Shown piece by piece: positions 16,429-43,812 of a stretch of 64,000 bases of DNA. The notes below the pieces were generated by a model. It saw nothing but the letters and a program-made list of their open reading frames with translations. It had not been told where the DNA came from and ran no database searches. The number at the start of each line of letters is the position of its first letter. Within the stretch, counting starts at the first letter, position 1. The stretch is from Blasia pusilla (taxonomy: Eukaryota): positions 27,590,001 to 27,654,000 of the forward strand of contig CM114271.1 in the NCBI GenBank assembly GCA_050084515.1. Reading direction: 5' to 3'. The position numbers and the translations under genes are program-made.

Positions 16429-19400
16429 TGTCGTGCGTGTACACATCGCTATACAACATACATTGTTGTCACTGAATACACACATAAACACGCACGATCC
16501 CATGCTAACTCATGGCATCCAAAGAAGCACACAAGAAGTACCAAAATATCTCCAATCGCCCTCCTAGCTGGTGGTTAGGTCCTTCTAACTCTAGATAGCC
16601 ATCTATCCCTACCTACCACGACATACATCTCTCGGACGCTAAGATCAAGAAGGTCGTGTGCTCATGTGCCCCATCGTTAGTCGCCTTCTTGTCATCCATG
16701 TCACAGACACAAGTTGGAATTTATAACTACCTACTCTATGTACATCTGGGACACATCCATTGTCCCTGAGGAACTCTAGTGAGAGGTGGCATCATGCATG
16801 ACACATGCCATCCTCTCGAACGTCCATCATAGACTAGCATAGTGGCTGCACCACGCGCACAACCATCAACATACATTACAAGCCTGCAAGAACTACTGCT
16901 ACGCTCGGATCAAGTGTATCGTCAATGTTCGAAAGGTGACTCGGGGCACAGTTACGCACATGGTCTTCCAAACCATACCATCGCGTCCCTCCAATAAGAG
17001 AACACATGATGGCAAAACCTCATGCACTCTCAAGATGGTGCGCCTTGCAATCATATCCAACGTTGTGTGTGACGTCTGCTGCAAGTAGACATAGTCTCCC
17101 TGATCAAAACTCCGGATAGTAGGTCGATAACCACCCCGTGAATAGTTGCATATCTCAATGTATCTCGATGTTGTGCGATCACTCTCAAAAAAAATTCAGC
17201 CCTGTGAGAACATGCTCGCATCCATACATCACGGTCATCAAGGTTGAACACCTCACCAACATCTTGACGAATGGCCGTAGGTAAATCTAGCTCTCGGCCA
17301 TACAAAAGCAAGTACGTTGAGAAAGACCCTAAGGATGCCTGCCTGCTGAATGTGTATCCCATCGCCAACCACGGCAACTAGAGGTCCCAATCTCCTAGGT
17401 GACCTCTCTGCAAGCCATACTTGCGTAGTCCTCTTTTCACCGTCTGTACAACCCACTCCACTAGTCCATCCGCCTCACGATGATCTCACGAAGTAGTGCG
17501 GTGGTCGATCAGTGCCAGATCACGCAAGGCCTCAAACTCCCTGCGGAACTCTGTATCCTCATTTGTCAACACCTCAATTGATGAGCCGTAATGACTCATC
17601 ACTCGATCTAGGAAGGCATACGCTATTCCCTCACTCGCTTTGTCAAGCAATGCAACCAACTCTATCCACTTTGAGAAGTGCTCGACCATCACCAACACAT
17701 AACGACTATGGCACTATGTCAAAGGCAAAGGTCCTACGGAATCCAAACTCCATCTACAACCTAAATCCATGATCGGAAGTGGATGCAACTATGAGGTCGG
17801 AGCATTGAATGATGCTCAGACTCGATCACACACCATATATCTATTGTTGAACGTCAGTCTGCATGCATCACCACCAGTACTGAATTTGGAGCAAGATGTA
17901 CGTCCGCTTCACTCCAAAATGATCCAACTCCTCGTTGGTATGACGCACCAAATATGCTCTCTAGAAAGGATGAGGTACTACACGCACTCTACCATCCTCC
18001 CACACTCACAACACATGTGTCCCCTCCCACTGGAACCGTCTGGTTTGTTGTAGGATCCGATCTTGCTCTCTAGCACCCATTGTGCTCACGACGCTACCAG
18101 TACGCAGGTACTCCAAGACCACTCCATCGTCATGAATGTCCGGCCACTTGTTGTCTCCTCACAAGCCTCTGGATCTAAGGATTCTCCATCAGATCTCGCC
18201 ATCAAAGTCTCAAAAATCTGGCTCTCCATAGCCAACAAGCCCAAATAGGTTGACGCACGCCATCCTGGCACCAACTCCTCATCACTCTCACCATGCCAAC
18301 TAGTTCCAGTTGCATCTCGCTGACTCGGCCATAGGTTACGGCTCAAACCATCTGCATCCTGGTTGAGCGTCCCAGGTCTATGCACCAACTAGAAGTCATA
18401 CTTCTGCAACAAAAGAGCCCACCTTGCAAGCTTCCCTGTAAGCTTGTCGGACTCCATCAACCACTTAAATGGCTGATGATCAATAATGATGGTAAAGGGA
18501 TTTCCGGATAGATAAGATCTGAAATGTGCGACAACGCATACTATAGCTAAGCACTCACCCTCATACAAGCTATACTTTGCCTCTGCAATATTTTTTGAGC
18601 GACTACCGTAAGCCACCACGAACTCTCTACCATCATCGTCTTCCTGGGTGAGCACGGCTCCAAGCCCCAACATGCTCCAATTGGTATGCAATTGGAAAGG
18701 ACGCCCCTTGATCGGTCTACTCAATATGGGCACGAACGTCAATATGTCCTTGAGCATCTCAAATGGTCTCTCTTGCTGATCCCCCTAGTGCCACTCTTGA
18801 TCCACCGTGGTCAGCAAGGTCAACGGCTTTGCAATCGAGCTAAAACCCTTGACGTACCGTCAATAGAAGTTTGCCAATCCCATGAATGCACAAACTTAAC
18901 TCACATCTGTAGGGCGTGGAATGCATGAAATAGCCTCTACCTTCGTGTGCTGCACACCAAGGCCCCCTGGGTCTGTCGTATGACCCAAGTACTCAATCTG
19001 GTCGTAGAAGAACTTGCACTTGGCTTGATGTAGCTTCAACCCATGTAACAGCAATCGTCGAAACACCTCCTCTAGATGTCGCTCATGCTCCTCAATCGTG
19101 GCGCTAAAGACTACAATGTCATCAATATAACACCTAGAAAAATCCAGACTTTCCAAGATCCTATCCATGATCCTTTGAAGCTCATCCGAGGCGTTCTTTA
19201 ACCCAAAAGGTAAGAACCGCCATTGGTACAAGAAATCCTTCCCGTGAAGATCGATGCCCCAAAATTCTATCGTCTGCCTGTCCTCCAATCTTATAGGCAG
19301 TTGATGGTATCTGGCTCAAAGATCTAATGAACTGAAGATCTTTGCATGCCCAATAGCATCAAAGATCTCCTCAAGAGTGGGGATGGCATACTTATCGGAC

Positions 19401-21487
19401 TTTGTTTGCCAATTGATAGGTCGGTAATCTCCACACATCCGCCTATCCGTCCAGTTGCCATGCACATCCTTCTTGGCGAGCATGACAGTGGCAGATGCAT
19501 ACTCTCCATGCGACATCTCCACAAGTCCTACGCCAACCAAGTCATGGCTCCTACTCTGAATCAGAGCCCTCTCCCTGTCACTGTACTTGTAGCATCATCA
19601 GAAGATCGACGTGTCACTCGATAACTCAATGCGGATCCCTGGATCCTTCAGCGTACCCAAATCATGCATACTAAATGCAAAACAACTCCTATAACTCCAA
19701 AGGAACTACTGTATCCGGCGCCGCTCTCCTTTTGTCAACTTAGGGCCCATATCTGACTCCCAAGTCTCCATTTTGACTACGGTAAAACTCTCTGGTGCAG
19801 GTGTTGGTGGTTGCCATGGTGCAACCCCATCTTGGACAACAAAACTCGACTGCTCCCCAGCAGCAAACTACAGAATCGGATCTCCATTTGCAGTTTCCGG
19901 AACCACATTCAATGTTGTGGCTATCATCTCTTGGCGTACCTACAAAACATCCCAAGAAGTCCAAGGGTGTCTCTCCCAATCACCCTTGGTGTGTCGATCT
20001 CCTCGGGTCTTGCCCCCCAACCACTGCCTCAACCGTCTTGGTAGGCATGGGGCTCACCAACGCAACTTTTGTGATGTGTCGCATCCTCAAACGACGTTGC
20101 TCAGCTAATCCTAAGCTGAAAATCAATGTTAAGCAGTTCAAGTCCATCGCCTGACCCAAGACATGACGTCGTGATGCCTTTGATAGTGATGGTACCGCCG
20201 TCACTCCTGTGGGGAATCCCATCGCTTGCTCTGGCTCATCAGCGTTGGGCTCCACCAACCTCTTTACCTGGTCATCCCAAACCAAGCCAGGTCCGGCCTC
20301 CTTGAATGCATAGGAAGTGAGAAAACTCACCAATGTGGAAAAGGCTACTCATGGCATGCCAATCTTGTTGACCATAGTGAACGGCAGTTGATCATTGTGC
20401 CTCACTCCATGTGATCGACTGGCCGGACCCAATATAGAATCCACCAAAAAATTGGAGGGATGCTCCACTCTCGCATAAGCCCTCTGCAATACCTCATGTG
20501 GTACCTAGTTGGTGCACCAAAGACACGGGCCGTGTGCTCTAGAACCTACACTCGCCGCATCTAACAACACTGCAGGGCCAATCCCTGCGCGCACTTGATG
20601 TGCACTCGTCACCACACGGGACCTTGAATCGCCAAAAACTAGCACATTCTCCAAAATATATGATGGAGAATGAGGCTGATGCTCTTGTAAATGTCCCAAG
20701 ATCCGCATCATCTCCCAAAATAACCTGGACCAAGTGTCACCTAACCCACTACCTCGTCCAGCACTCGATTGGCCTTGACACGACCAACCAACAATAACCA
20801 AGTCTATGGTCCCTACCCGCTCCAAATCTTGCGCCCCCAACAATGAAATGTTCCTTGGTAGGAAACTCTAGTAACCCTGAATGGCGGACACAGACAACAA
20901 GTCGGGAAAACGAAGGCATAAGTGCGCCACATGATGAAGTGAAGCGCGCCTCACAACATCATAAATCTCCACATAAAAGTACTACTGCACGCGCACTCCA
21001 ACGTGCAAAATAGCAACTAACCCAGTGTTGATCCCTCCAAAGAGATCCAGCATCCAAATACCCTCCTCTGGGATGCACCACACAATCGGGGTGATGTCCA
21101 AAGGGGTCATAGCAACACTCCTACCTACCTGGGGTTCCTCTGACCCGTCACACTCTAAAGCAAACGTCTCGCTCCACGCGGTCTACACATGCTGAGTGGC
21201 TAAGCGTCGAAGCTCCTCAGTCGAGCCCCAAAGCAGCACCTCTCCTCCATGGACTGATGCGGCTACCATGACACTCCTCTCCATAAAAAGTCAGGAACGG
21301 GAGTATCCTCTATACGGACATGTCCCTCAATCAAATCACTAGGCCAAGTTATGGCACTCCTAAATGCTGCTAAGGTTGCCATCTCTCTTGGCCGTCGCTC
21401 GGTCACTGCACATATGAATTGAACGGGTAATGAGCTAAGGCGCCCATCACTTGACTGCCATCATGGTTTGTAGGATGCTGACTCCTC
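16429..21487 (-). mobile_element. 5'-truncated Ty3/gypsy copy G1: DNMT-RT-RNaseH-INT-PHD, ending in a B repeat
   Basis: RT (RMCGDYRPIN, PFGLKNA, YIDD), RNase H (FQLHTNWS..YGSR..EGECLA), integrase (VMVEHFSKWIE), PHD remnants ~16740-16880, purine tract GGAGGGCGA, then B repeat ending CACGACA at 16429. Confidence 0.9.
20130..21060 (-). pseudogene. DNMT3-like C5-cytosine methyltransferase domain in G1
   Basis: MLDLFGGINTGL (I), IDLVIVGWSCQG (IV), YILENV (VI), LDAASVGSRAHGPCLW (VIII), EQAMGFPTGVT (IX), RRHVLGQAMD (X). Confidence 0.85.
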
Positions 21488-21884
21488 TGTCGTGCGCATA
21501 CATATCGCTACACAACATACATCGCTAATCACATCTACACCACACAACACCGATCTTCCCCACACACGGATCGATCCACACATGTACAAAAATCAACTCA
21601 TACATATACATGGAGATCACACAACAAAAATAAAGAGTAGTAAAAATGGTACACCCGGCCCAAAACTCCACTCCTCAATCTACATCGGCATATCGAGCCT
21701 CGTCCACCCTGTGCTATCAAGGAATCTGGACGCTAGCATCCTAGTCCTATCTCACACACATACATGAGACGTGCTCCAACCGCCCAACATGAGAAAGATG
21801 GCTTAGGAAAGCCATCTTCCTCTCTTATATAGGGTTGGGAAGAGCCAAAAGGCTCTTCCCCTAAAAATAGCCTTTCCCTTGGTA
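21488..21884 (-). mobile_element. Truncated terminal repeat, second copy of the 1928-2543 repeat
   Basis: Near-identical to 1928-2323 over ~400 bp. Confidence 0.9.
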
Positions 21885-22794
21885 GGTCATCCTCAACCTC
21901 CTGAGTCTGTCCTCCACTACTAGTGAAGGCGCTCTACTAGATCTCACCGATCTATCCTAAAATACGTGAGATACGCCACACAATGGGTATGGTGTCCAAA
22001 GGTGACATTGTAGCACCCCGTCTAACTCAGGTTCCTCTTACTTATCATGCTCTTGTCCAAATGCCTCACTCTAGGTCATTTGCATATGCTCATTATCCAG
22101 TTGCAAGCTTTGAAGCCTCTCACTCGAGCCCCTCAAAGGCACCTGTCAAAGGATAGATCGATGAGATCTAGTAGAGCACCTTCAGGAGTAGTGGAGGAAA
22201 GACTCAGGAGGTTGAGGATGAGCTATTGAGGCTCCGGGAAACCTGAGGGAGTAGGTTTCCCCTTCGTTTCGGCTCATTTGGAGCCATATTGAGGAACTTA
22301 CTATTTTAGATATGTACCATTTTGAGTATATGATTGACTTTCTATTTTTGGTAAGTGGCCCTTGACCTCCTACATTAGGTCAAGAGCCAAGGATGTGACT
22401 TGGAAGCATAAGTTACCGTGGAGAGAGCTTGGAAGAGGGGAGGGGTATACCTCAAGGAGAGAGAGCTTGAGAGCTCATTCTCTTTGTTGAACCTCTTGGC
22501 ACGAGGCAGTAGAGCTATAGTCCCTTGCCTTATGAGTGTAACCGAAGCCTCTTATTAGGAGAGTGGGTTTAGTTTGACATTGAGAGAGACATGTTAGAGT
22601 GCACACATGTGAGGACTATGGTGTTGTGAGAGAGATTGGATATTACTTTATTGGAGATATTTTGGTACTTCTTGTCTCGTTGTTTGGATGCCATGAGTTA
22701 GCATGGGATCGTGCGTGTTTTGTGTGTGTGTGTGTGTGTGTGTGTGTTTGGTGATAACTATTTATGTTGTGTAGCGATGTGTATGCGCACGACA
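21885..22794 (+). mobile_element. Solo A+B terminal repeat whose 5' start and flank are inverted
   Basis: A part 22150-22650 and B part 22651-22794 ending GCGCACGACA. Its 5' start lies inverted at 21971-21885. TSD CGTA (21975-21972, minus strand) / GGTA (22795-22798). (GT)n at 22722-22746. Confidence 0.75.
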
Positions 22795-23549: not shown

Positions 23550-26500
23550 TGTCAAGTGTCTTGCATTAGAAAAGTGGTAAAGAAGCATAACTGGTGGAAA
23601 ACTGCTCTCACACTCACACACCACCATGGAGAAAAAATTTTGCAATAAGAGAAAGAGTGGAGGGTGTTCCCCTTCTCAATTATATAGGGTATGTACAAGC
23701 AACCCTAACCCTAATCTTAACCATAGTCTCGAGTAAGACTAATTGTGATTAACTAACCATAGTTAAGATAATGGCGCTGAACTAACTAACCAAGATTAAG
23801 CTTCCCTACTTCGTGTGAGTACCAAATATAGCAATTCAGGTGTTTGATGAGCTTCACTATAACTCAATCTTCAATAATCCCCCTCAAGCTCATATCGATA
23901 TCTCTAACACTTAAATCATTTCTAAACATCTCAAACTTATCTCTAGACAATGCCTTTGTAAAGATGTCAGCAATTTGCTGATCCGTACCTGTATATAAAA
24001 GATCAATTTCTCCTAAAAGCACTTTCTCTCTGATAAAATGATAGTGCACCTCAACATGCTTTGTACGAGCATGAAACACAAGGTTATTAACAAGCTTGAT
24101 GCTACTAATATTGTCTGCATATATTACACTAGGTCATAAGTTACTAATACCAATCTCAACAAGTAATCGATGAAGCCACACCGCCTCACATGTTGCATTG
24201 GTTGTTCCTCTGTATTCAGCCTTTGTTGAAGATAAAACAACTTTAGGTTGCTTCTTTGAATCCCAACTTATAACTGCACTTCCCAAAGTAAACGAAGAAC
24301 CAGATGTGGAGTGTCGATCAGACACGCTTTCTGCCCAATCAACATCTGTGAATCCTTGTAATTATAAACTTGGAGAAGGTTAAAATTGAAGGGAAGTCAT
24401 TATATATGCATGATGTGTCGCTAGGAAACCTTCATTTATGAATCTATGAACAGGATGTGTGACTCTACTTAATCTATGAAATTGTTGTTCAGAGGTAGAT
24501 GCCTCTAAAACCTGACTCAAGATCTGACTAGTGTCAATAGACTAAATACGTACTCTTCTCGTCTATGGACTCACATATTTAACTTAAAAATCTAGGATCT
24601 CTTCTAATTCAACGCTAGTACTTGGGGAATTTGAAGACAATGTCTATTGGTTTATAGTCATATTCTCCCCCTTAACAGACGAGTTTAGAGATGGAATAGG
24701 CTCAGATAGAGCATATAATGATTTTAGCTCATCAAAGATAACATCGCGACTGATACTAAGTTGCATAGAGGATGGAATATAGCACTTATATCCCTTAGTT
24801 CTATTAGCTTAACCAATGAATATACATCTTTCAGATTTGGGATCTAATTTCTTACGTATTTCAGAAGGAACATGAGCATAACAAATACAACCAAATACTT
24901 TCAAGATGGAAAAATCAGGTTTACTTCTTGGAGTCTTATCATAAACTCCTCTTGTTGGAATTCGGTTGATCAAGAAGACTACACACGCTACATCCTCTAT
25001 CCAATACACCATAGGCATGTTCTTCTCATTCAGCATACCTCGTGGCGCCTCAACAATATATCGATTCTTCCTCTTAGCCACTCCATTTGATATGGGGTGT
25101 AACATCAAGTCACTTGACGTTGGATGTCATTCTAACGTAAGTAATCATCAAACTCTTGAAAGATATCCTCCTCCTCCTCCATCTCAACGCAATTTTGGAA
25201 TGTGTTCTCCAGTCTGCTTCTCTACTAGAACTCTGAATGTTTGGAATATTGAGAATACCCATATATAACTAAAGAAGTCATCAATAAATGAAACAAAATC
25301 CTTGCAACCACTAAGACTATGTTGTAATGTTGTCCACAAGTCATTGTGAATCAACTCCAATATCTTGGATGCTCTTCTATCTTACTTTGGAAAAAGAAAT
25401 CTAGCTTGTTTTCAAAATTGACAAGCAGGACATACCTCTAACGTAGGAGGACTCGTTAATTTAGGAAGTCCTATTACTATATTAGATTATGAAAGACTCT
25501 GTAATCTTTGAAGATTCATATGTCCAATTCTCTTATGCCACACATTTAGATCTGTGACTTGTTGGCCACTTTGACCATACATTGTTGTTTGAATCTTTGG
25601 CATAGAAACATCTAATTTGAACATTCTGCCAGATCTACTTCCTTTGGCTATTGTAGTCTGGTCATCCATTATTTCAATTAAACAACCATTTATTTTAAAC
25701 TTCACTTGATAACCCTATTCTATTATTGTCCTATAGAGATCAAGTTTCTTGCAATGGTAGGACCATAGAGAGCATTTTCAAGAGCACAAAGACCATCTGA
25801 TGCTATCGGAACTTTACCAGTCTGCGTGATATGCTGAGTGTCATCCCCTATGAGCACAATTGAAGGATCTTTCACTGGCTCCATACTACTAAACCATTTA
25901 GCTTATTAGATCATATGATTTGATGCACAAGAGTGAATATACCAATTTGTTGTCAAATCTTTCTTGATCATTGCTCCCATATGATGAGTCATAACCAAGA
26001 AATGCTCAATTTGTGAATGTTGTTGTTCTTGGTACTGCCCTTGGTGTTATTGCTCCAGATAGTTTCGTTGTTATAAGGCTTCTATTCTCATATCTATCTT
26101 ATTTTTGAAGCAAAAATTTGCATAATGATCCTTTATCCCATAGTAATTGCAAGATCCAAGGATCCTCTATTGTTGACCTCGATCCAAACGGTTTCTACCA
26201 TCATCATCTTGTAATTCTGTCTCGTACTGATTCATAGTTGATTGAGTGATGTTATATTGAGTGTCTTTTCCTCCATAGGTTTGATATCCACCACGACCAC
26301 GGAAGTTTCTACCACGACCCCTGCCTCTGTTTGATCCATAATCTGCAAATAGCACACTCTCTTGTAGACTAGACGAGCGAGCGTTGCCTACTAGACGCAT
26401 CTCTTCACTGATTAACAATGGCACTAACTCTTGAAAGGTTAGATACTTCTCTCTCACATAGATAGAGATCTCAAAGGACTTGTAATCCTTTGGAAGGCCT

Positions 26501-27343
26501 TGAAGAGTGAAAAAAATCAGATCATCATCTTCTACTGTCACTGCAATGCTATTCAACTGATCAACAATATGTGTGATACTCAAAATATAATCATTAATGC
26601 TCTGCGATTCTTCCCTCACTTCGTTCAATTTTTGTTTCAATTGAAGCTTTATGGCCGTTGTAGATGTCTGGAACAAATTTTCTAATGCATCCCAGTCAAC
26701 CTTCGGATTATCAACATCTTGAATATGACCTATCATTGGGGAATTGATCGTTATTGAAATGTAGTGGATTACTTGCCTTGCGCGTTTGTTCCAAACGCGA
26801 ACATTCAAGTCTATTGAGTCACCTTCTGGCTTGGCCTCATCACCTATGACAAGCTCCCATAATTCTTGACCCATGAGGAATTATTTCATGTGAAACTTCC
26901 AGACATTGTAAGTTTGCTTATCTAGTTTCTCGCTTGTGATTGTTGTTGAGGAATACTCCATCACGAACAATTTCACTCACAAAAACGTAATTCCAGACTC
27001 TCTAGTGCTCCAATTGAAACATAGACCACTCTTTATCATAAATCAACCTGAAATTTGCCAAAATTGATCAATTGTATGAAAGAACTAGTCGAAATTGGCT
27101 TGTAGAGAGCAAATTGCACAACTTTTCTTCACTAATTGCACTTTCCTAGACTCAAATTGCTATTGCATGAGCTCAGAATGTCATAATTGAGCAATTTTGG
27201 ATGCATTGGAAAGCTCTCAATGAGCTCTACAAGACAATAAGAGCTTAATTGACTAACCAAGATTAAGCTTTCCTATTTCGTGTGAGTACCAAATGTAGTA
27301 ATTCAGGTGTCTCATGAGCTTGACTGTAACTCAATCTTCAATA
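23550..27343 (-). mobile_element. Decayed, internally deleted Ty1/copia retrotransposon inserted in the G2 DNMT domain
   Basis: Copia gag (26167-26874), GAG-pre-integrase WHKRIGH, integrase NGVAKRKNR..VFGC..KLDPKS, RNase H HARTKHVEVHYHFIRE. Most of RT is missing. PPT GAGGGGGAT next to the 3' LTR (23550-23876). A 5' LTR remnant ends TCTTCAATA at 27343. Confidence 0.9.
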
Positions 27344-28105
27344 CTCACTTCTTATGCATATAAAGAGGCTAGTCCGGATCCTGACTTGGTTTGGGATGGC
27401 CAGACACAACGGTTGGAGCCAAATGTTGATGAGCGAGAGCAAGCGATGAGGTTTTCCATGGGAGTGACGAAAATATTGACACTATCAAGGGCATCATGAC
27501 ATTATATCTTGGTTGAGGCAATAGACGTTAATTTCTTGACATGGATTCTCAACTTCAGAGTAGTGAAGCAACTTGGATGAGGTTGCGACAAATCATTGTT
27601 GTTGCTTTTTTGAGCCATTTCTTGAACCAAGACGGTTCAGGCAATGCCCGGGGGCCAGATCTGAGGAGATTGACATATCAAGGTTGATTGGGAGATACGA
27701 CTTTAGACTTCTTGGGATATCTTGCTAGTACATCGTGAGATGGCAGCCACAACATTGAGCGTGGTACATGGTTCCGTACACCGAGGAAAGAAGAATGCAA
27801 AGTTGGTTGCAGGGGAGCGATTAAGTTTTGTCGTTTAAGATAGTGTTACACCATAGCAACCACACATACTTGTGTGAAAGAGTCCTACAATGATCACAAT
27901 GGGGATCCAAATATGGGTCCCAAGTTGACAAGAGGAGATTGACGTCGGATACATAAGTTGTGAAGGAGTCATATGAGTAATTTTGCATTTAGTATGCATG
28001 ATTTGCAATTGGGTACGCTGAAGGGTCTAGGGATCCTCATTGAGTTGTCTAGTGACACGTGGATCTTCTGACAACCTTATAGGTATAATGATATGGAGAG
28101 GGCTC

Positions 28106-28473
28106 TATCATGACCATACGGATTATGTCATAGAGTATAGAGTGCTAGTAGAGGCCATACCTTATGTAGGGCCGTAGTGTCTAGGTAGAGATGCGATTTC
28201 ATACATAGGGTTGGGGGTTACTCAGTTGAGGGTGACTTTTCCAATAGAGCCCGCTCTTAGGTTGGAGGATATAGTGTGGAGTGTACTTAAAGAACAGTTA
28301 GTTCTTTGAGTTGAGTCTCTTGCGTTGGGAGTTAGCCTTGGTAGTGAGTAGAGCTCTTGGCTATGGTGATTCCCGCAAGCTTTGACCTGGATTCTCCCAT
28401 CGTGGAGTGGGTTTGGCTCAATTCTATGTGATTCTATACGTGTTTTATGACAGTAGGTCTTTCACGGATTTCA
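28106..28473 (+). repeat. Repeat A1 (368 bp) of G3
   Basis: Colinear and highly similar to 37350-37717; homology stops at CACGGATT(T/C)CA. Confidence 0.92.
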
Positions 28474-31400
28474 CTCAAAGAATTTGAGTAGTCTGATGGT
28501 AGCTTCGATCGTAGATCAGTAGGATCTTATTAGGGTTGATTGTGTACTCAGCCATGGATGTTCATGGCTTGTGGCCTATATTGGAGGTGGGAATCTGGTA
28601 AGTGGTTGGTTGGGAAAGAAGCGCCTTGCTGAGAGCTTTCCAACGCGCTTTAGATCGCCGGATTTCGTCAAGGGAATTGGAAGTTATCAAGGATTGAAGA
28701 TTCTGGTTCGTGTTCAAGGGTTTTTTGATGTGGAGAGCTTGGAGTGCGGAAGCTCTGCTGAAGTTCATCCACATCGGGAGAGGGTTCCTATTGCTACCTG
28801 TATTGTGATCTCATGTGAAGCTATCTGCTTGAGTGTGTGGAGTGTTGCGGATTTCTGTGTGCATGAATCTGGGCGGAAGCGCTGTCGGATTTACGATTCT
28901 GGAGGTGTATGGACAACAAGTTTGTTTGATTTTTAGCTCGGAGTAGAGAGCTTGGTTGTAGCTGATTTTTTGTGGAGAGATAGCTATGGTGGCCAATTGA
29001 ATTCTGGTCAAAACAGAGTAATTTTTGATCGAAATTTTGTGGACAGCAGACCGGAGGGGCTGGTTGGTTGGTGACTCGTCCGTTGTTGGAGACGCCTATC
29101 CTGTTGGGGGCGCCCTGGTTGGGGCTCTCTCCATAGCGAAGCATGGAAAAGCATGGCGAACGGGGCAATAGGGGCATGTCTCGAGCATTTCTCAATGTTT
29201 TGAGGATTCGAGGCAACTCGTGGTAGCTCGGGGCGAGTGGGTGTGAGAGACTGAGTAAGGAGCAAGGAGCAAGCAAGCAAGCTTGCTTGATTGGGCGTGA
29301 GGCAGTTTTTTCAGGATTTGTGAGTTGAGTGTTGCATAACTGGTCACCCATCTTTGGGCTATTCTGCCTAGAAGACGCTTAACTGCTGAATTCTTAACTA
29401 TGCTAGTGTACACACTGGTGTAGCTCATTTGGTGTTGTTTGGAGATGTGTTAGGCGCTTTATGCATCTCGGGTTTTCGGTTGATGGACCTCTAGCGCATA
29501 GTATGATGTAGCCTCTCCATGCAGGTGATATTTTTTTCAAGTGCCACTAGCACGTCATCGACCAGCGGCGGAGTAGCTATTGCGTTAGAATTGTGTGGTG
29601 GGTTCTGTGGATTCAGGGGGCGCCATGTTTGGTGGATTGTGTTACCTTGATTTCCATTTGCGATTGGAGGGTTTTCGTCGGACTTTCTGTGTTTGGATCC
29701 CTTCCATCGTTGCTTCTTTCTTGCGCGCCCATTGTTAGGGTTAACGCTGATTTCCAGAGTAGTTTTACTCCTGTATGCTACAGGTAGTGAGGCTCGAGTG
29801 ATGACCAGTAGACCATGGGAGGCTTCTTGTGGTGATGACAAGTTAGGCTGCCTACACCCATAGCTAGTAGAGCTAGAATAGTACAGCGACATCGGCGTCA
29901 CTTGGTTACTTAGTGGTGGTGATTTGGTGGTGGTGCGGCATTGGCGTTGGTCATCACAGAGTTGTCTGTTGGTCTGGTTGGGGACCGTGGTGCGGACAGT
30001 GGTGGTTTTACATGTAGTGGATTGAGGTATCGGCTACCTTTTTCACTTTCGACAGTTGATGAAGAGGAGGACGAGGGTGTTCCAAACACCGAGTCTTCTA
30101 CGTTGTTATCGAGAGTTGCAACTTCATTGATTTGGGACATGGACGGGATATATAGGGCCATGAAGGGCCCATGACGATACTTGGGTGCAATGGGCACCAT
30201 TGAGTTGGAGGAATTCATTCAGGAACGCCACATTGTTTACACCCTTCTTGGCTTGGAAGGGGTTGTTTCATCACTTGGAGGGACCACCCATGGATGATTA
30301 CCATGAGTTTAGGAAGTACCATGTTTTTGAGATTGAGGTGTGGAGATAATATTGGTCTCCAGGCTATGTGTCTATCACCCATGGTGGTATTGGTAGTAGT
30401 GCTCCTACTATGCCAGCCAGCCCGACGTTGAGTGGTACAAGTACGAGCCGGAGTGGGGTAACCACTGGAGGTACCCATGGAGGTACCAGTGGAGGTACTA
30501 GTGCCCCACCATCGTTCAGCCGGGTTGCTGAGTTCTTCAAGAGGTTGAAGAAGAACTATTAGGGAGTGAAGACAGAGAAGTTTAGGAGTCTTCAGGAATT
30601 TGAGCGAAAGACTGGTGAGAGTCTTCGTGAGGCATACACTCGTATGGGACGCTTGATTTCAGTTACCCAAGGTGTGACTGAGGCTCAGGCAGTCCAATTT
30701 TGGAATGGGATCTTGGACAGAGAGTTGCGTCGCAGGGTATGTGATGCTACTCTTATGAGTGATGATTCACCCACATTGACCCATGTGTTTGCTCTATCTG
30801 AGAAGATTGAGCTTAACATGGTGGAGGAGAGAGTGGTGACATCTGCATTCAGTAGGGATACAACTACTACTTCTCGTGTTCAACAGTCCATCTCACAGTC
30901 TCATAGTAGTGGTGGTGGTAGTAGTAGTAGTGGGAGTCGTGGGGGGTACACACGACCTCAGTCAGGTCCTAGAGGGACACTTGCGTAGAGACCATTGCCT
31001 TCATTTGCTACCCCGCAGCAAGGACAATCATGTTGGACATGTGGAGGTGATCATGTTAGGAGGTTTTGTCCCCAAGAGGATGGGAGATGGAATTTGGAGG
31101 ATGGGCCTCAGTCGGCCCCAACTCAGTGTGATCATTGCGGGAGACCAGATCATCCTTAAGAGCGTTGCTTTGATCTTCATCCAGAGTTGAGATCAGGCCA
31201 CGGCCGTGGTGAAGTAGCTCCGAGAGGCCGAGGTGGTAGAGGTGGTAGGGGTGGTAGAGGTGGACCAGTGGTTGGAGAGCCTATGGTGGCTACCCCTACC
31301 ACTACGACAAAGTCAGCTATGGCTACCAGGATTGAGCAGTTGGAGCAGAAGTTGGCTACTATGGTTGGTATCCAGCATAGAACAGGTTCGGGAGCAGGGG

Positions 31401-32790
31401 CTTCCATCTCTTATGGAGGGGATGATCTCTCTTATATGGCAAGTGCAGCACACGTTGAGGCATCAACTGCAGTTACGAGAGGAGCCACTCGAGCATCAGA
31501 GCCAGATGGTGCTATTGTGGAGTTGGACCCACACAAGGGTGAGGCTGGGAGGCAAGCTAGGCTTCCCCAATCATTCTTGTTGTCTGAGATGCTTAGGACT
31601 CCATCCATGGTTCCTTCGCAGCCTATTGAGCCTACAGTGGGGACTGAGGCATCTACATCGCGTGTAGTAGACACGGATGTAGCATCCAGTGGAGTATTGC
31701 GGATGGCAACTTCAGTGTTGGGATCCCAATTGTTTTCAGCCACGGAGCTGATGGCTTTAGGAGTTGACTTAGCTCTTGTATTTCAGCTAGCAGCCACGTT
31801 GTGTGAACGTGGGGGTGTTACTGCTACACGTGCTGAGGTGTATGAGGGTGTTGCGGTGGAGCGACCCTCTATTTCAGGTGTAGCATTAAGTACCAGTGCT
31901 ACTTGGCAAGCAACAACGGCAAAGATGGATGCATTACCAACTCGGCCACCCATTGATTGTGAGAGGCTTACACCTGGTGTATGTATGTTGGACAACCGGA
32001 GTGGGATATTCCGATTGGTGAGTCCTACAAGATAGGTGTATAGACCAAATAGATTCTTGTTAGACTCTGGTGTCCATTCTTTGATGTTGGGAAAGGCGGC
32101 ATGTATTGGTTTGGGTATTCGGAGGTCAGAGCTTGAGCCTTGCCCATTCCAAATTGAAACATCACTTGGAGGAGCCAATGATAGGTCTCAATTCATGACA
32201 CGGGAGAAGTTGTCTGTACAGTTGAGACCTGATAATGCGATTGATAGCTCCCGGTTGGGAGTACCTGCAGTGGTCACATCAGCCGAGTCATATGATGTAC
32301 TAGTTGGAGGAGCAGTATTATACCCGATGGGTTTTTAGATGGATTACTGGACTGAGACAACGTCTTATAGACCTGGTTAGCACTCCGAGGATGGACATAT
32401 GAGCCACGTTCCTGTGAGATTTATTTATGGCGTTCGACCAAGAGGCTCTTCCCCAACGGTGTTAGCATCTGTGGCTAGTTTTTGTGGAGTAGTCACTTAG
32501 CCATGAGACTTTTTGGAGGGTAACCTTTCTGCTATGGATTCTCGTGTGCATGAGGAGGTAGAGGAGGTCCCTAGTTTTGCAGCTGTGGTATCCTCATCGT
32601 TGGATGTGCCACTTTGGAGTTCAGGCGGTGCACTACGGAAGGAGGCTGATCGCCTAGTGCAGGAGGCTTGGTGTGAGGCTGTTATACGTCACGAGGAAGA
32701 GGAGGCCCACGGCGGACTCCTACTTTTGGTCCAGTAGGGTTATCCCCTTTGGATACTACACCCATTGTATGGCAATATCCGCCGGAGGGC

Positions 32791-33720
32791 ATTTGTGTGT
32801 TAGATCTCTTTGGTGGGATTAGCACTGGTTTGGCTATAGTGTTGTAGGCCGGTATTCCTGTGCAGAGATACGTGTATGTGGAGCGAGATGAGACGGCCCA
32901 GAGAGTCTCATCCCGACATATTGGTCAGTTGATGCGGAGATATCCTGAGTTGTTGCCGCCATCAGCTATTCGTGAGTACCATCATGCTTTGCCATCACAC
33001 ATTGCATTGTTAGGGATGCAGGACCTTGAGAGGGTTGGTCCTGTGGATTTGGTGATTGCTAGATGGCCATGTCAGGGTCATACACGTGTTGGTCGTGGTG
33101 AGGGATTACACGACCCTAGGTCTCGATTGTTTTGGGAGATGTTACGGGTGTTACGACATCTTGAGTTCATCGAGCACGTGCTCGGCTTACATTCTGGAGA
33201 ATGTTCCATTGTTGGGTGACACTCGGACCCGGATGATGGCGAGTGTTCATGAGGTGCGGTCTTGGATTGGACCAGCGGTGTTGTTGGATGCAGCGCGAGT
33301 TGGCTCGCGTGTACATCGTCCATGCTTGTGGTGGAAAAACTTGTTGCCTAGCGAGGTTCTACGTCGAGCATATGATGCAATGCAGCAGGATCCTTGCCTT
33401 ACAGTGGATAGTATCTTGGATATTGGGCGACTTTCTCAGGTGGTGAGGGTTATTGATCGGTCATCCATGGCAGTGGTGAACCGTGTGGGCCAGCATAGGA
33501 TGGCACTACCCACATTTGTGAGTTTTCCCTCGTCACATGCCTACAAGGAAGGTGGTCTAGAGCTTGTTTGGGATTCTCATGTGCGACAGTTGGTGGAGCC
33601 TAACGCTGATGAGAGAGAGCGTGTGATGGGATTTGCTATTGGTGTGACAGCGATTGCTTCCATTTCTGAGGGTTCACGACGTCATGTGTTAGGTCAGGCC
33701 ATGGACCTCAGTTGTTTGAC
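32791..33720 (+). pseudogene. DNMT3-like C5-cytosine methyltransferase domain in G3
   Basis: VLDLFGGISTGL (I), YVYVERD (II), VDLVIARWPCQG (IV, catalytic PC), YILENVP (VI), PAVLLDAARVGSRVHRPCLWW (VIII), ERERVMGF (IX), RRHVLGQAMD (X). Confidence 0.9.
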
Positions 33721-36700
33721 CGAGCAGCGTCGACTTCGGACTATGTCTATGGGTCTTCCACCCCTTGTGATGAGCTTGATGGCTACTTGGATGGTAGAGA
33801 CATCGGCTGGGGGCGAGGAGAATAGTATTTTGCATCCTTGGAGTAAATGGGATGTAATGGTTGGGCATGTGGAGTTGGTTGCTCATGCTGGTGGAGGAGT
33901 TATTTCCTCAAATGATGGTGTAGCTAGGGGTGTACCATCTTGTGAGGGCGTTGCATAGCAACCAATGGTGTCGTCCTCTCACTCTAGTGTGCCAGTGGAG
34001 GAGACTTGGGAGCCATTACTTGGGCCCAAGCTTAGGGGAGGTGAGAAACGACGCTTGACACAATTCCTACGTGCTTATAGGAGTTGTTTTGCCTTTAGCA
34101 TGAAGGAGTTGGGTGCTTTGGTTGGACCTGGTATACGGATTGATTTGGCTAGTGATTCGCCAATCTTCCGTCGTCCCTACCGATATAGTGATATGGAGAG
34201 GGACCTGATTCAGAGTAGGACGTTGGACCTTTTGGAGGCTGGATTAGTGGAGTTGTTGCATGGAGAGTATGCATTAGCCACAGTCATGCCTGCTAAAAAG
34301 GATGTGCATGGCAAGTACACAGATAGGCGGATGTGTGGAGATTATCGTCCTATCAATCGGCAGACCAAGGCCGATAGGTATGCCATGCCTACACCTGAGG
34401 AGATCTTTGATGTGGTGGGACAGGCAAAGATTTTCAATACTTTGGATCTTCGGGCAGGGTACCATGAGTTGCCAATTCGAGAGAGTGACAAGGCCAAGAC
34501 AACATTTTGGGGTGTCAACTGTCATGGCAAGGATGGTTTGTATCAGTGGAAATTCTAATCCTTTGGGTTGAAGAATGCACCTGCCGAGTTTCACATAGTG
34601 ATGGACAGGATCCTAGCAGGGTTGGATTTTGTTCGCTGTTATATTGATGATATTTTGGTGCTCAATAACATGGTGGAGGAGCATCACATACATTTGCAGA
34701 TTTTGTTTGAGCGGTTGAAAGCTCATGGTCTACGTTTGCATCTAGGAAAGTGTGAGTTCTTCCATGAGGATGTTGAGTACTTGGATCATGTGATCTATCC
34801 AGGTGGTTAGGGAGTTCAGCAAGCAAAGGTGGAGGCTATTGCACTTATTCCTTGTCCGGTAGATGTGAGTAGAGTTCGGGCATTCATGGGATTGGCGAAC
34901 TACTATCAGAGGTATGTGAAAGGATTTAGTACTATGGCAAAGCCTTTGAACCAATTGCTGAAATCAGATCAAGGGTGGCATTGGGAAATGATCAGGAGAG
35001 AGCTTTTGTGGATCTCAAGGCCCAGTTGGTGACGGCGCCTATCTTGAGGACACCTATCAGAGGGCGCCCATTTCAGTTACACAGTGATTGGAGTAGGTTG
35101 GAACTTGGAACGGTGTTGACACAACATGATGATGAGCACATGGAGTTTGTGGTGGCTTATGCAAGTCGTTCGAATAATGCAGCGGAGTCGCGCTATAGTT
35201 CATATGAGGGAGAGTGCTTGGCAGTAGTGTGGGCTATGGCACACTTTAGGTATTACTTTTTTGGCACACAGTTTACCCTAGTTACTGATCACCAGCCGCT
35301 CAAGTGGTTGATGGAGTCTGACAAGCTTACAGGGAAGCTTGCACGGTGGGCTCTTATCTTACAGGAGTATGACTTCTAGATGGTACATAGACCTGGGATT
35401 GCCAACCTTGATGCTGATGGGTTGAGTAGGAACCCATGTACTAGCCAAGAGGATGCAATTGGGGCTAGATGGCATGGCGAGGTTGATGAGGAGATGGTGC
35501 CAAGTTGGCATGCATCTGCCTTTTTATGTTGGTTAGGGGTGGACTCTAGTATGGAGGACCACATGACATCTTACTCTAGTCAGAGGGTAGATGGTCAGCC
35601 TTCAGATCCTAAGGTTGGAGATTATGGTACGGATCAGCGTGATATTCATGATGATGCATTGGTGTTGGAGTTCCTACGGACCAGTAGGGTGCCAGGCATA
35701 GTGAGTACCAAGGAGCGAGATCGTGTTCTTCAACGTGCTAAGAGGTATCGATTGGAGGGAACACATATTCTCCGTGTGTGGGAGGATGGTAGAGTATGAG
35801 TAGTGCCGCATTTGGATCAGAGAGAGCGCATTGTGCGACATGCCCATGAGGAGTTGGGACATTTTGGGGTAAAGCGTACGTATAGCTTACTCCTTGGTCA
35901 GTATTGGTGGCGTGGCATGCATACTCAAGTGCAGCAATTGGTGTCACGTTGTATAGTTTGTGACCAGGTGAGGGCATCATTCTATGCCCCTACACCACAG
36001 TTACACCCCTTGCCTATTATGGGGTTGGGTTACCGTTGGAGTGTGGACTTTGCGGGACCGTTATCATTGACTGTACGACATCATCGATATGTGTTGGTGA
36101 TGGTGGAGCACTTCTCCAAGTGGATTGAGTTGGTGGCATTACCTGACAAGGCAAGTGAGGGAACGGCATATGCATTTCTTGATAGAGTGCTGAGTCATTT
36201 TGGTGCACCAGCTGAAGTGTTGACCAACCAGGGTACAGAGTTTCAGGGTGAGTTTCAGGTCTTGTGTGACAAGGCGTTCGTTGATCATCAGACCACGTCT
36301 CGAGATCATCCAGAGGCGAATGGTTTGGCTGCAGGTGTGGTTTAGACGGTGAAGAGCGCATTGCGCAAGTATGGCCTACAGAAGGGGCATCTTGGAGACT
36401 GGGATATTCAATTGCCATGGTTAGCCATGGGGTATAGGTTCAGTTGCCAAGCATCCTTGGCTTCCTTCTCACCTTATTTTCTATTATACGGCCGAGATCC
36501 GGACTTGCCAACAGCAATTCGTCGAGAGTCTAGTAAGGTGGTGAACCTTGATGACCCAGAGATATGGATGAGAGTGTGTTCTCAGCGGGCAGAGCTCTTT
36601 CGGAGAGTTATGCCAACAGCCTTTGAGAATCTTGCCATTGCTGAACACAAGGATATGTTGCGGTATGCAACCATTCGGGGTGGAGGTTATTGATTCCATA

Positions 36701-36926
36701 TAGGGGAATATATCTATTTGCAGCATATTGCACCGACAACAATGGATGTGACGGCAAGCCACACTATTTTACGAGTGCGCGAGGTGCTAGCTTGTGGAGT
36801 TCTCATATTAAAGGGTCGTGATGGAGTTTTTTGGAAGGACCATATGCGTAATTATGCGCCATGTCATCTTCCAAATGTGGATGGTACTGTTGACCCAAAC
36901 TTAGTCATGATACGTGCTAGCTTGAG

Positions 36927-37066
36927 GTGCATGTTGTGTGGGTCTACTGGTAACGTAGCCCGTATATTGGTGTGTGATCGATGTTCTAGGGGTTGGCACA
37001 TGATGTGTTTGACTCCACGTATGGATGTTGTTCATACTGGAAGGTGGGTTTGTCCATGATGTACTT
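36927..37066 (+). other. PHD finger (C4-H-C3) at the integrase C-terminus
   Basis: CMLCGSTGNVARILVCDRCSRGWHMMCLTPRMDVVHTGRWVCP*C. Confidence 0.9.
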
Positions 37067-37241
37067 AGGAGAGGTAGATGACTTGATCTTTGCATGATAT
37101 GGATTACAGATGTGCGACTGATGATGGGGCAACCTAGCACCCGGCCTTCTGATTCTTGCACCCACGAAGGTGTATAGCATGTAGTAGATGTATAGGGCTA
37201 CCTGGGAGTTAGAGGGACCTAACCACCAGTTTGGGGGGCGA

Positions 37242-37823
37242 GTTGTGGTACACGGGTATTTGTGGATGCTCTCGTCTATGTTATGTATGTATGTGAGTTT
37301 GATATGTCAGCAATGTATGTTGTATGACGATGTGGATTCGCACGATAGCTGTCATGACCATACGGATTATGTCGTAGAGTATAGTGTGCTAGTAGAGGCC
37401 ATACCTTATGTAGGGCCGTAGTGTCTAGGTAGAGATGCGGTTTCATACATAGGGTTGGGGGTTACTCAATTGAGGATGACTTTTCCAGTAGGGCCCGCTC
37501 TTAAGTTGGAGGATATAGTATGGAGTGCACTCAAAGAACAGTTAGTTCTTTGAGTTGAGCCTGTCGCGTTGGGAGTTAGCCTTAGTAGTGAGTAGAGCTC
37601 TTGGCTTTGGTAGTTCCCGCAAGATTTGACCTGGATTCTCCCATCGTGGAGTGGGTTTGGCTCGATTGTATGTGATTCTATACGTATTTTATGATAGTAG
37701 GTCTTTCACGGATTCCAGTTGTGGTACACTTGTGTTTCTGGATGCTCTCATCTATGTTATGTATGTATGTGAGTATGGTATGTCAGCGATGTATGTTGTA
37801 TGACGATGTGGATTCGCACGACA
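37242..37823 (+). repeat. 3' B1-A2-B2 repeat block of G3
   Basis: Purine tract GGGGGGCGA (37233-37241), B1 (106 bp), GC spacer, A2 (368 bp), B2 (106 bp) ending CACGACA. Confidence 0.92.
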
Positions 37824-40764
37824 GCTCTGATTCACAGTAGGAGACATGACTTGGTTGGAGTAGGACTAGTGGAGATGTTCCATAGAGAGTATGCATCTGC
37901 CACTATCATGCTCACCAAGAAGGATGTTCATGGCAACTGGACATATAATCAGATGTGTGGAGACTATCGACTTATCAATCAACAAATGAAGTCCAATAGA
38001 TATGTCATGCCCACTCCTGAGGAGATCTTTGATGTTATACGACATGCAAAAGTCTTCAATTCATTCGAAACCCAAGCCAGATACCATCAATTGCCTATTA
38101 GATTGGAGGACATGTAGAAGATGATATTTTTGGGCATCGATCCATACAGGATAGATTATTTGTACCATTGGCGGTTCTAATCATTTGGGTTAAAGAACAC
38201 CCCAATAGAGTTTCAGAGGGTCATGGAAAGGATCTTGGCTGGTTTGGATTTTGCGAGATGTTACGTTGATGAGACCGTAGTCTTTAGTCTCATAGTTGAG
38301 GAGCATAAACGACATGAGTTGACATCTAGAGAAGTTGTTCTGAAGATTATTACAATTATATGGGCTGAAGGTACATCCAAGCAAGTGCAAGTTCTTCTAC
38401 GATCGCATTGAATACTTGGGTCATACGATATATCCCAAATTTCCTTGATGTATAACGGACGAAGGTAGAGACTATCTTATGTATTCCACACCCTACATAT
38501 GTGAGTTGAGTTCGCGTATCCATAAGATTGGAAAAATTTTTCCAACGATACGTCAAGGATTTTAGTTTGATTGCAAAGTCACTAACCTTGCTGACCAAGG
38601 TGGATTATAAGTGGCATATGCATAAGGATGATGAGCAAGAGAGATCGTTTCAACTACTTAAGTATAGGTTGATGTCCGTGCCCATATTGAGGAGAGATAT
38701 TAGAAGACATCTTTTCCATTTTCATGTAGATTGGAGTATGTTGGGGCTTGGAGCAGTTCTCACCTAGCATGACAATAAGGGTAGAGAGTTTATGGTGGCT
38801 TATGCTAGTTGCTCGAACAATGTTGCAAAGGCAAAGTATAGCTCGTATGAGGATGAGTGCTTAGCTGCAGTGTGGGCTGTAGCGCATTTCACGTGTTACT
38901 TATCCAAAAATCCCTTTACTATCATTGCTGACCATCAACCATTTAAGTGGTCGATGTAGTCCAAAAAACTTAAAGGGAAGATTTCCAGATGGGCTCCATT
39001 GTTGCAGGAGTATGACTTTACATGGTATGTCAACTTGGGATGCTCAACCACGATGCAAATGGTTGGGGCCGTAATCCATGCCCGAGTCAACAAGATGCGA
39101 TTGAAGCTCATTAGTATGGAGGAAGTGATGAGAAGATGGTGTTGAGATGGCATGCGTCAGTCTATTTGGGCTTGTTGGCTATGGAAAGCGAGAGTGTTGA
39201 GATTTCGATGGCGAGATCTGATATATGGAGAACCCTTAGATCTAGAGGCCAATAAGGAGGCGATAGATGGTTGTGATATCCATGACGATGGATTAGTCTT
39301 GGAATACTTACATACTAGCGGCGTTATGAGCACAATGGATGCTAGAGAGTGAAATTAGATCCTATAGCAAGCCAAAAAATTCTGGTGGAAGAGAAGGAAC
39401 ATGCTACAAGTTTGGGAGGATGGTAGAGTACGCGTTCTACCTCATCCTTCACAAAGATCATATTTGGTGTAGCCTGCCCACAAGGGGTCAGGTCACTTTG
39501 GAATAAAGAAGACGTCCAACTTGCTCCAAATATAGTATTGGTGGCGAGGCATGAAGGCTTGTGTTCAGCAGTTTATTTTCAGATACATGGTGTGTGATCG
39601 GGTCCGAGCATCGTTCAATGCTCTAACTCCAAAATTACATTCACTATCGATCATTGGTTTAGGTTATAGATGGAGTTTGGATTTGGCAAGACCTTTACCT
39701 TTGATAGAGCGCCATAGTCGTTATGTGCTGGTAATGGTTGCGTACTTCTCAAAGTGGATAGAGTTGGTTGCATTGCTTGACAAAGCGAGTGAGGGAGTAG
39801 TGTATGCCTTTCTAGATTGAGTGATGAGTCATTATGGTGCACCAGTTGAGATATTGACATACAAGTGTACAAAGTTTTGCAAGGAGTTTCAGGCCGTATG
39901 TGATCAGACGCTGATGCACCACTACACTATTTTGCGAGATCATCTTGAGGCGGATGGACTAAAGGAGTGAGTTTTTTAGACGATGAAGAGAAGTTTACCC
40001 AAGCATGGCTTGTAGAGAGATCACTTAGGAGATTGGGACCTAAAATTGCGTTGGTTGGCAATAGGATACACATTCAGCCAGTACGCGTCCTTAACATCTT
40101 TCTCACCATACTTATTGATTTTTGGCGAAAAGCCAAAATTTCCTGCCACCATTTTTTGTGATGTGAGTGATGTGTTGAACCTCAATGAACATGATGTATG
40201 GATACGAGCATGTTCTTAGATGTCTGAGTTGTTTTGGAGAGTTTTGCCCATTGTATTTTAGAACTTAGCGATTGCGCAACATCGGGATACTTTGAGGTAT
40301 CCGACTATGCGGCGAGATGGTTATCGACGATTCAGAGATCTTATTAGGGAGAATATATCCACTTGCAGCATACAACATCTAAGAAATTAGATGTGATCAT
40401 AGGATGCACCATTTTGAAAGTCCGTGATGTCTTACCATTTCGTGTTCTCTTATTGGAGGGACGTAATGCTATGGTTTGGAAGGATCATGTGCGTAATTAT
40501 GCGCCATGTCACTTTTCTAACATTGACAGTAGGGTTGATCCGAGCTTAATAATAATAATTGCACGATTGTGTTGTATGTTATGTGGTTCTGCTTGTGGTG
40601 CAACCATTCTGCTAGTCTGTGATGGATATTCGAGAGGGTGGCACATGGCATGTTTGACACCTCCTCTCACTAGGGTTCCTCTGGGATGATAGACGTGCCC
40701 CATATGTACATAGAGTAGAGACTAGGTAGTTATAAATCCATACTCATATTTGTGACATGGATGA

Positions 40765-42946
<2,182 letters not shown>

Positions 42947-43087
42947 ATGACAAGAAGATAGCTAACAATGGGGCCACATGAGCAACTGCCTTTTTTGCTC
43001 TTAGTGTCCTAGAGATTTGTATCATGGTAGGTAGGGATAGATGGTTATCTGGAGTTAGAGAGACCTAATCACCAACTAGGAGGGCGA

Positions 43088-43640
43088 TTGGAGATATTTT
43101 GGTATTTGATCATATCGATGTTTACCATGAGTTAGTATGGTATCTTGTGTGTTTGTCTATGTATTCAATGACAACTATGTGTGTTGAGTAGCGATGTGTA
43201 TGCGCACGACAGTTGTCACGTGTTTTAGGATATATCGAAGAGTTCATAGTAGAGCATCTTCTAGGATACTATAGGATAGTCTTAAGAGATCAAGAATGAC
43301 CTCCTAAGGCCTCATGTATCCGAAGAGAGCAAGTTTTCCCTTTGTTTCAACTCATTTGGAGCTATATAGAGAATTTACTATTTTGAGTAAGTTATCGTTA
43401 TGAGTATAGTTGAATTTCCACTTTAGAACGTAGCCCTTCATCCCTACAACAAGTCAAGAGCCAAGGAGGTGACTTGCGAGCATAAGTTACCATGAAGAGA
43501 GCTGGGGAGAGGGAAGGAGATATAGCTTTGGAGCTTATTCTCTATTTGTTGAACCTCTTGGCATGAGGCGGCATAGCTATGGTCCTCCTTGCCTAATGAG
43601 TAACCCAATACTTTCATTAGGAGAGTGGATTTGGCTTGAC

Positions 43641-43681
<41 letters not shown>

Positions 43682-43812
43682 TGATTTATTAGAGATATTT
43701 TAGAACTCAATTGTCTTGATGTTTAGATGTCATGAGTTAGTATGATATCTTGTGTGTTTTTGTATTCAATGAACACGATATATAGTGTGTAGTAATATGT
43801 ATGAACACAACA
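43088..43812 (+). repeat. 3' B1-A2-B2 repeat block of G2
   Basis: GGAGGGCGA tract, B1 TTGGAGATATTTT..GCGCACGACA, GT spacer, A2 TGTCACGTG.., B2 TTAGAGATATTTT..GAACACAACA. Confidence 0.85.

Follow-up and report, generated by a model that had tools for sequence, protein, structure and literature searches.

Split direct repeats in a decayed Ty3/gypsy element of Blasia pusilla with a DDE integrase: a family-wide layout and a probable circular permutation

Ngaro, PAT (including Toc and Kangaroo) and DIRS retroelements have direct repeats in the split order A1...B1-A2-B2, in which the internal pair comes after the coding region (PMC4157794, in the parts drawn on here). Such repeats have been treated as a hallmark of the tyrosine recombinase that these elements carry in place of a DDE integrase. 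De Mendoza et al. 2018 (PMC5890265, in its accessible portion) give the DIRS arrangement as A-coding region-B-A-B, and their Fig. 4c legend describes KnitGypsy-Dnmt3 of Klebsormidium as having DIRS-like repeats together with gypsy domains. Here we analyze G1, a decayed element at 28106-37823 of a 64,000-nucleotide stretch of Blasia pusilla DNA (assembly GCA_050084515.1, contig CM114271.1, positions 27,590,001 to 27,654,000; hereafter the window), which combines this layout with a DDE integrase. G1 belongs to the kind noted in print in 2018. A sequence-only reading of the window knew of no description of this combination, a claim that the Fig. 4c legend overturns. We found no description of split repeats with a gypsy DDE integrase other than that of de Mendoza et al. 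2018, in a search that left most subscription journals outside. The accessible text of that paper neither places a purine tract or primer site nor mentions duplications or a mechanism. The permuted-repeat reading, the positions assigned to purine tract and primer site, the census of copies and the inversion footprint presented below appear to be new relative to the literature searched.

The repeats of G1 were delimited with a repeat finder, by blastn and by direct reading. A1 (28106-28473, 368 bp, starting TATCATG and ending in TTTCA) is the sole repeat at the 5' end. At the 3' end the purine tract GGGGGGCGA (37233-37241) directly adjoins B1 (37242-37347, 106 bp, ending CACGATA), which is followed by the two-nucleotide spacer GC (37348-37349), A2 (37350-37717, starting TGTCATG) and B2 (37718-37823, ending CACGACA), all on the plus strand. 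The spacer lies within a palindromic joint, CACGAYA-NN-TGTCATG. A1 and A2 are 93% alike, and B1 and B2 are 92% alike. When the whole window was searched with B by blastn, no B was seen after A1, and an nhmmer profile built on the ends of B located nine such ends in the window, none of them near 28474. The sequence-only reading had proposed exactly this order and the lack of B after A1, and blastn, the profile and direct reading bear it out. It had also pointed to the same block in a second element, G2, which we recover on the plus strand at 43088-43812 (B1 43088-43211, spacer GT, A2 43214-43688, B2 43689-43812), preceded by the purine tract GGAGGGCGA.

The boundaries of G1 were read directly from its target-site duplication, GCTC (28102-28105 and 37824-37827). 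An older minus-strand paralogue in the window runs unbroken across the insertion point and holds GCTC in a single copy, representing the empty site. In the self-comparison of the window, 16692-19567 matches 40764-37824 and 19563-20321 matches 28106-27344, with an overlap of 4-5 bases. Because the paralogue is continuous across the insertion point, the boundaries of G1 are fixed independently of its repeats. G1 is an insertion into the older element G2, to which the flanks left of 28106 and right of 37823 belong, a nesting that corrects the earlier reading.

The interior of G1 holds a gag-pol region decayed by many stops and frameshifts (30533-37062, plus strand), recognized by Pfam and by tblastn of the related polyprotein P0003, whose residues 196 to 2344 are collinear with G1. 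Upstream of the reverse transcriptase (about 34319-34784; RVT_1) lies a C5 DNA methyltransferase (about 32713-33700); its PF00145 match is weak but above threshold (23.2 bits, the cut-off being 22; E 5.5e-05), and FGG, PCQ and ENV motifs can be seen in the translations. RNase H (34984-35370; RT_RNaseH), an integrase (35815-36312; Integrase_H2C2 and rve) and, after the integrase, a PHD finger (36928-37062) complete the series on the same strand. The gag-pol also contains a protease region and a gag zinc knuckle, the latter (CX2CX4HX4C) seen by eye. Pfam places RVT_1, RT_RNaseH, Integrase_H2C2 and rve in the order of Ty3/gypsy pol (protease-reverse transcriptase-RNase H-integrase, with the integrase after the reverse transcriptase). 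TG..CA termini and a short target-site duplication likewise agree with Ty3/gypsy elements, whereas two equal long terminal repeats (LTRs) are absent, the 5' end having A only and the 3' end B-NN-A-B.

The best-matching proteins (40-49% identity) are those of the green algae Tetrabaena, Pleodorina and Chlamydomonas and of Klebsormidium nitens, together with many metagenome proteins; many relatives carry both PF00145 and the PHD finger. We assign G1, in its decayed state, to a Ty3/gypsy clade of the green lineage that has a Dnmt3-like methyltransferase, a DDE integrase and a PHD finger. Like KnitGypsy-Dnmt3 of K. nitens, it has a Dnmt3-type methyltransferase in pol and A-coding-B-A-B repeats (PMC5890265, Fig. 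4c legend). Unlike KnitGypsy-Dnmt3, it resides in another host organism, and the relation is only about 48% at the protein level: the K. nitens protein KFL_009030040 aligns to 84% of the RNase H-integrase-PHD query and is 48% identical there, no closer to G1 than metagenome proteins and those of other green algae (40-49%).

The sharing of a layout with Ngaro, PAT and DIRS raises the question of whether G1 moved as they do, as a circle inserted by a tyrosine recombinase that acted in trans or has been lost, with the DDE integrase idle. The layout is indeed the same as that of PAT and Ngaro, and green-algal Toc elements are grouped among PAT (PMC4157794, same parts). However, Pfam gave no match to a tyrosine recombinase, either in all six frames of 28474-30900, which takes in the leader (28474-30500) that the sequence-only reading had proposed to search, or in three frames of 28474-37240, and the relatives carry rve, with no PF00589 among their precomputed domains. 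Moreover, the 4-bp duplications, perfect in five copies, and the TG..CA ends found in all are marks of a DDE integrase; tyrosine-recombinase elements are not known to have such duplications. G1 thus differs from the tyrosine-recombinase elements in its integrase, its ends and its duplications, and we regard movement by a tyrosine recombinase as highly improbable.

Whether the layout is peculiar to G1 was addressed by a scan of metagenome contigs, which gave 80 related loci; A and B of two subfamilies were then used as probes, and the junctions were read. Duplicates were removed (five pairs, and L064-L067, which are identical sequence from different assemblies), and many loci of more distant families or with too little flank were left unclassed. 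Purine tract-B1-NN-A2-B2 occurs in 13 distinct metagenome copies of two subfamilies (L003, L005, L010, L013, L015, L019, L021, L024, L029, L033, L038, L041 and L044) as well as in G1 and G2. The 3' block is therefore present in 15 copies of three subfamilies, with constant edges and a spacer that is always two nucleotides long and variable in its letters (GC in seven, AC in four, and TC, TA, AA and GT in one each). At the other end, A is succeeded by a conserved leader in the 12 distinct 5' ends seen, that of G1 included, and B follows A in none of them. The A1...B1-NN-A2-B2 layout is the norm of the family and not an accident of one copy. Ordinary AB...AB pairs, which would have spoken against the sequence-only reading, are absent from these 5' ends, and its view that the layout calls for a non-canonical route is upheld.

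An ordinary LTR element with A-B as its LTR, of which G1 lost the 5' B and gained a partial B1 by chance rearrangement, would account for some features. A solo A-B insertion with its own duplication exists in the window (40765-42946), the A-B unit has TG..CA inverted ends, and two copies in the window at first seemed to have A-B at the 5' end. Those apparent 5' units proved to be a displaced A2-B2 and a chimera (95 nucleotides of A plus 403 of another repeat), as detailed below, and chance rearrangement of one copy is at odds with 12 distinct 5' ends without B and with a 3' block that recurs in 15 copies of three subfamilies with constant edges and spacer. We give this explanation hardly any credence.

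Perfect 4-bp duplications are present in five of the eight elements with both flanks (GCTC in G1, AAGG in L005, CATA in L029, ATGT in L024, and TACA in the repeat-less L002, where it sits at the start of A and the end of B), and the duplication of L013 matches at three of four positions. Together with the Pfam evidence, this confirms the earlier description of an rve integrase, TG..CA ends and a 4-bp duplication in a gypsy lineage. The chromosomal ends and their duplications lie at the start of A and the end of B, that is, at the palindrome CACGACA-NN-TGTCATG.

Reverse transcription appears to delimit a different unit. The purine tract adjoins B1 in all 16 copies examined, and in all 16 B begins with the same base whether it follows the tract or the end of A2. 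Directly after the end of A1 lies a candidate primer-binding site, ACTCAAAGAA (28473-28482, plus strand), 10 nucleotides of which are complementary to mid-A, a length reached by none of 500 control windows. The partner, TTCTTTGAGT (28302-28311 inside A1, plus strand; 37546-37555 in A2), is a candidate 5' self-primer. After A1, CTCAAAGAA is conserved in L002, L005, L014 and L029, and the leader start is complementary to mid-A over at least 10 nucleotides in eight of 13 elements (among them 17 in L005, 14 in L047, 11 in L013 and L029, and 10 in G1, L014 and L024), lengths reached by at most two of 500 control windows. The pairing covaries between the two subfamilies, ACTCAAAGAA/TTCTTTGAGT in one corresponding to TAGAAAAACT/AGTTTTTCTA in the other.

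The extent of the RNA was estimated from stranded reads of two runs with the same species label, in 337-base bins and for a multi-copy family. Sense depth rises from about 4-5 in 27900-28236 to 33-43 in 28237-28573, stands at 123-187 in 36999-37335 and 70-102 in 37336-37672, and is low (2.5-5.5) in 37673-38000, the bin containing B2. At this coarse resolution, the family RNA spans from inside A1 to inside A2. Reads crossing the purine tract into a G2-type B number 69 and 159 in the two runs. Given the position of the purine tract, the primer site and the RNA extent, the repeat made by reverse transcription would be B-NN-A. A purine tract and a candidate primer site, as in other Ty3/gypsy elements, are present in G1, yet they bracket B-NN-A and not the unit defined by the chromosomal ends.

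Two types of read joining were noted in the same RNA data. Reads join 28423 to 37379, which correspond to positions 318 and 29 of A (3 and 8 reads), and others skip 1008 integrase bases from 35602 to 36611, with nine other letters between (16 and 29 reads). Both types probably come from variant expressed copies.

We propose the following route, based on the anatomy of the copies. B-NN-A would be built at both cDNA (complementary DNA) ends, with U3 formed by B and the first part of A, R by mid-A and U5 by the end of A. Minus-strand priming would probably be self-priming of the Tf1 kind. The cDNA termini, the start of B and the end of A, would become joined, in a two-repeat circle or by an equivalent end-joining, leaving A2|B2 as the seam. 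The integrase would cut after both CA of one palindromic joint, dropping the 2-nucleotide spacer, and would insert both ends with a 4-bp stagger, which would yield A1 ... purine tract-B1-NN-A2-B2. Since the cDNA termini would be joined at A2|B2 and the chromosomal ends lie at the palindrome, the integrated copy would be a circular permutation of the linear cDNA. On balance, we consider it probable that integrated G1 is such a permutation, its joined ends having been reopened by the integrase at the palindrome.

The permutation model would also account for two features of the repeats. The identities of A1/A2 and B1/B2 are alike in G1 (93/92%) and in five other copies (92/94, 91/92, 89/94, 91/93 and 86/84%), and the B1 and B2 of any one subfamily remain alike although B varies strongly from one subfamily to the next. 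A nearest-neighbour comparison of B sequences within subfamilies found no lineage specific to the B1 or the B2 position. The own partner is nearest for 11 of 28 B sequences, and the other 17 comprise 12 nearest to a B in the other position and five nearest to one in the same position, a distribution that is not decisive.

A circular or end-joined intermediate is what G1 would share with Ngaro, PAT and DIRS. A study of HIV-1 integrase reportedly observed cleavage of a palindromic LTR-LTR junction. Foamy-virus integrase cleaves the palindromic LTR-LTR junctions of 2-LTR circles (PMC1180852, from the part of the paper used here). As in that cleavage, the route proposed for G1 has a DDE integrase acting on a CA..TG palindrome in duplex DNA to give processed ends. 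In retroviruses, however, the palindrome arises from the joined cDNA termini, whereas that of G1 would lie inside the reverse-transcription repeat, and the seam of the termini, A2|B2, is separate and non-palindromic. The sequence-only reading had taken the B1/A2 joint for an end-to-end circle junction. Its palindromic nature and its identity with the chromosomal ends stand, but, judging by the positions of the purine tract and the primer site, the joint falls inside the repeat made by reverse transcription, and the joined termini would be those at A2|B2.

Self-priming is known from Tf1/sushi and plant Tcn1 elements, whose primer site is complementary to their own 5' RNA region and not to a tRNA (PMC6317226, in the portion consulted). 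The G1 family resembles them in having a candidate primer site next to U5 that is complementary to its own mid-A. It differs in carrying a PHD finger instead of a chromodomain and in its permuted repeats, and its RNA 5' end is not mapped to the complementary stretch.

Several points weigh against the permutation and its priming scheme. The circle or end-joining is suggested by anatomy alone, no unintegrated DNA having been seen, and the A2|B2 seam is mostly exact, though more scars might be expected of end-joining; L015, L019, L044 and L010 do show small differences where A ends. The old copies L033 and L006 show no matching duplication. In five of the 13 elements, which are decayed copies, the leader complementarity is 6-8 nucleotides and does not exceed the control. 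The coarse bins and the many copies leave the RNA start and poly(A) sites unmapped to the base, and the sole strong RNA beginning, at 37511 (23 of 66 molecules), lies about 35 nucleotides upstream of the complementary site. In most of the expressed copies B is of a kind that fails to map on G1, so the low depth over B2 counts for less. Every copy seen is decayed, with none demonstrably active: a scan of nine related elements for open frames found none intact, with many stops in each. Finally, the copies that end at B1, described below, could arise at integration or by later B1/B2 recombination and do not discriminate.

The same permutation might also arise without any joining of free ends, if template switching by the reverse transcriptase, on read-through RNA or from end to end, made the seam between the end of A and the start of B, and the resulting circle or tandem were then opened by the integrase. 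The seam is exact in most copies, as this explanation would have it, and models of DIRS-type elements use internal repeats that pair with terminal ones (PMC4157794, same parts). On the other hand, the B2 bin has 2.5-5.5 reads against 70-187 upstream, so that a template spanning A2|B2 would be rare. We consider this variant unlikely, although it keeps a real share of the probability.

The census also yielded 12 distinct copies that end at purine tract-B1 and continue into unrelated DNA, with no A2-B2 (L002, L006, L016, L018, L030, L031, L037, L043, L048, L054, L075 and L079). It is conceivable that A...purine tract-B without a repeat is the basic mobile unit, produced by cutting both joints of the linear cDNA or from a one-repeat circle, and that copies with A2-B2 are a by-product. 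These 12 copies, among them L002 with its perfect TACA duplication, are what such a unit would leave. Such a unit would, however, lack a second A further downstream from which R and a poly(A) site could come, and hence could give no terminally redundant RNA; B1/B2 recombination in full copies would give the same product, and full copies are equally frequent (13 distinct, plus two in the window). We regard the repeat-less unit as quite improbable. Two copies could not be classed: the contig of L014 stops in A2, and L007 is deleted. In L008 (14275-14747; the same as L061), B1-GT-A2 is followed by unrelated sequence in place of B2; this right end is the one expected of an unpermuted linear cDNA, or it reflects a later rearrangement.

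Cutting of the palindromic joint by the integrase, as the permutation model has it, is suggested by an inversion in the window. A segment at 16429-22143 lies on the minus strand and consists of most of a third copy of the family (21971 down to 16429, ending in purine tract-B1) and 172 bp of sequence from the host element G2 (21972-22143). The A2-B2 of the same copy, split from its own B1 by the inversion, is on the plus strand at 22144-22794, and its B is most similar to the B1 at 16429-16555. One breakpoint coincides precisely with the end of B1, where B1 would have met A2 in the third copy, and the NN spacer is lost. At the other breakpoint, 172 bp outside the third copy, the target GGTG is duplicated (16425-16428, with the second copy as CACC on the plus strand at 22140-22143); the paralogue holds a single GGTG where the inversion site has two. 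The original insertion of the third copy has the flanks CGTA and GGTA. In G2, the plus-strand fragment ending at 16428 is continued first by the minus-strand 21972-22143 and then by plus-strand sequence starting at 22799, and re-inverting 16429-22143 would restore both G2 and the third copy. Such a footprint, which combines a 4-bp duplication with a breakpoint precisely at a joint, is what would be left by an integrase that cleaved the joint and inserted its two ends 172 bp away. The inversion may have occurred at integration or later.

A broader generalization, which we put forward tentatively and at somewhat less than an even chance, is that the whole green-lineage DDE-gypsy clade relies on obligate end-joined DNA opened at an internal palindrome, as a DDE counterpart of DIRS and Ngaro. 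The palindrome would remain active in chromosomal copies, where its cutting would invert host DNA, as at 16429-22143, and presumably delete it too.

The association of split direct repeats with a DDE integrase in many copies means that the layout is separable from the enzyme, and the origin of DIRS-like elements from gypsy-like ancestors becomes open to examination with a living intermediate form. If the proposed mechanism is true, joined-end cDNA, usually deemed a retroviral dead end, would be the productive intermediate here. Chromosomal rearrangements may also originate at the internal joint. In practice, LTR finders will mis-call such elements, either taking A1 and A2 as LTRs with a wrong 3' end or treating B1 and B2 as a tandem repeat.

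The remaining structures in the window mostly concern G2 and the third copy. A profile of A did not find the 5' end of G2 within the window. The unit at 22144-22794 was considered as a 5' LTR of G2 and rejected, since it is the displaced A2-B2 of the inverted third copy. Likewise, 21971-21488 was rejected as a 5' A-B of the third copy. The 5' part of that copy is a chimera of 95 nucleotides of A, 403 nucleotides of another family's repeat and then mid-coding sequence. The 403-nucleotide piece (21488-21890) is 94.5% identical to a repeat at 1928-2329, which is the 3' part of an other-subfamily repeat on the minus strand, ending CACGACA; the profile of B ends found no B1 upstream of it.

The solo A...B unit in G2 (40765-42946, plus strand) runs from TGTGATA to CACGATA and is flanked by the duplication ATGA (40761-40764 and 42947-42950). 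Its 2.2 kb contain a tandem array (41577-41813) and a long GA microsatellite. The self-comparison of the window showed other tandem repeat arrays at 5661-6127 and 7743-8331. G2 also holds an AT-rich insertion of 3.8 kb at 23552-27344, bounded by 104-bp direct repeats (23776-23879 and 27243-27346) that are 88% alike; a third similar piece is found at 59402-59488. Across 10001-44000, strand asymmetry tracks the orientation of the elements. GC skew is +0.15 to +0.29 where the plus strand is the sense strand of the copies and -0.12 to -0.22 over the minus-strand copy, and T exceeds A in G1.

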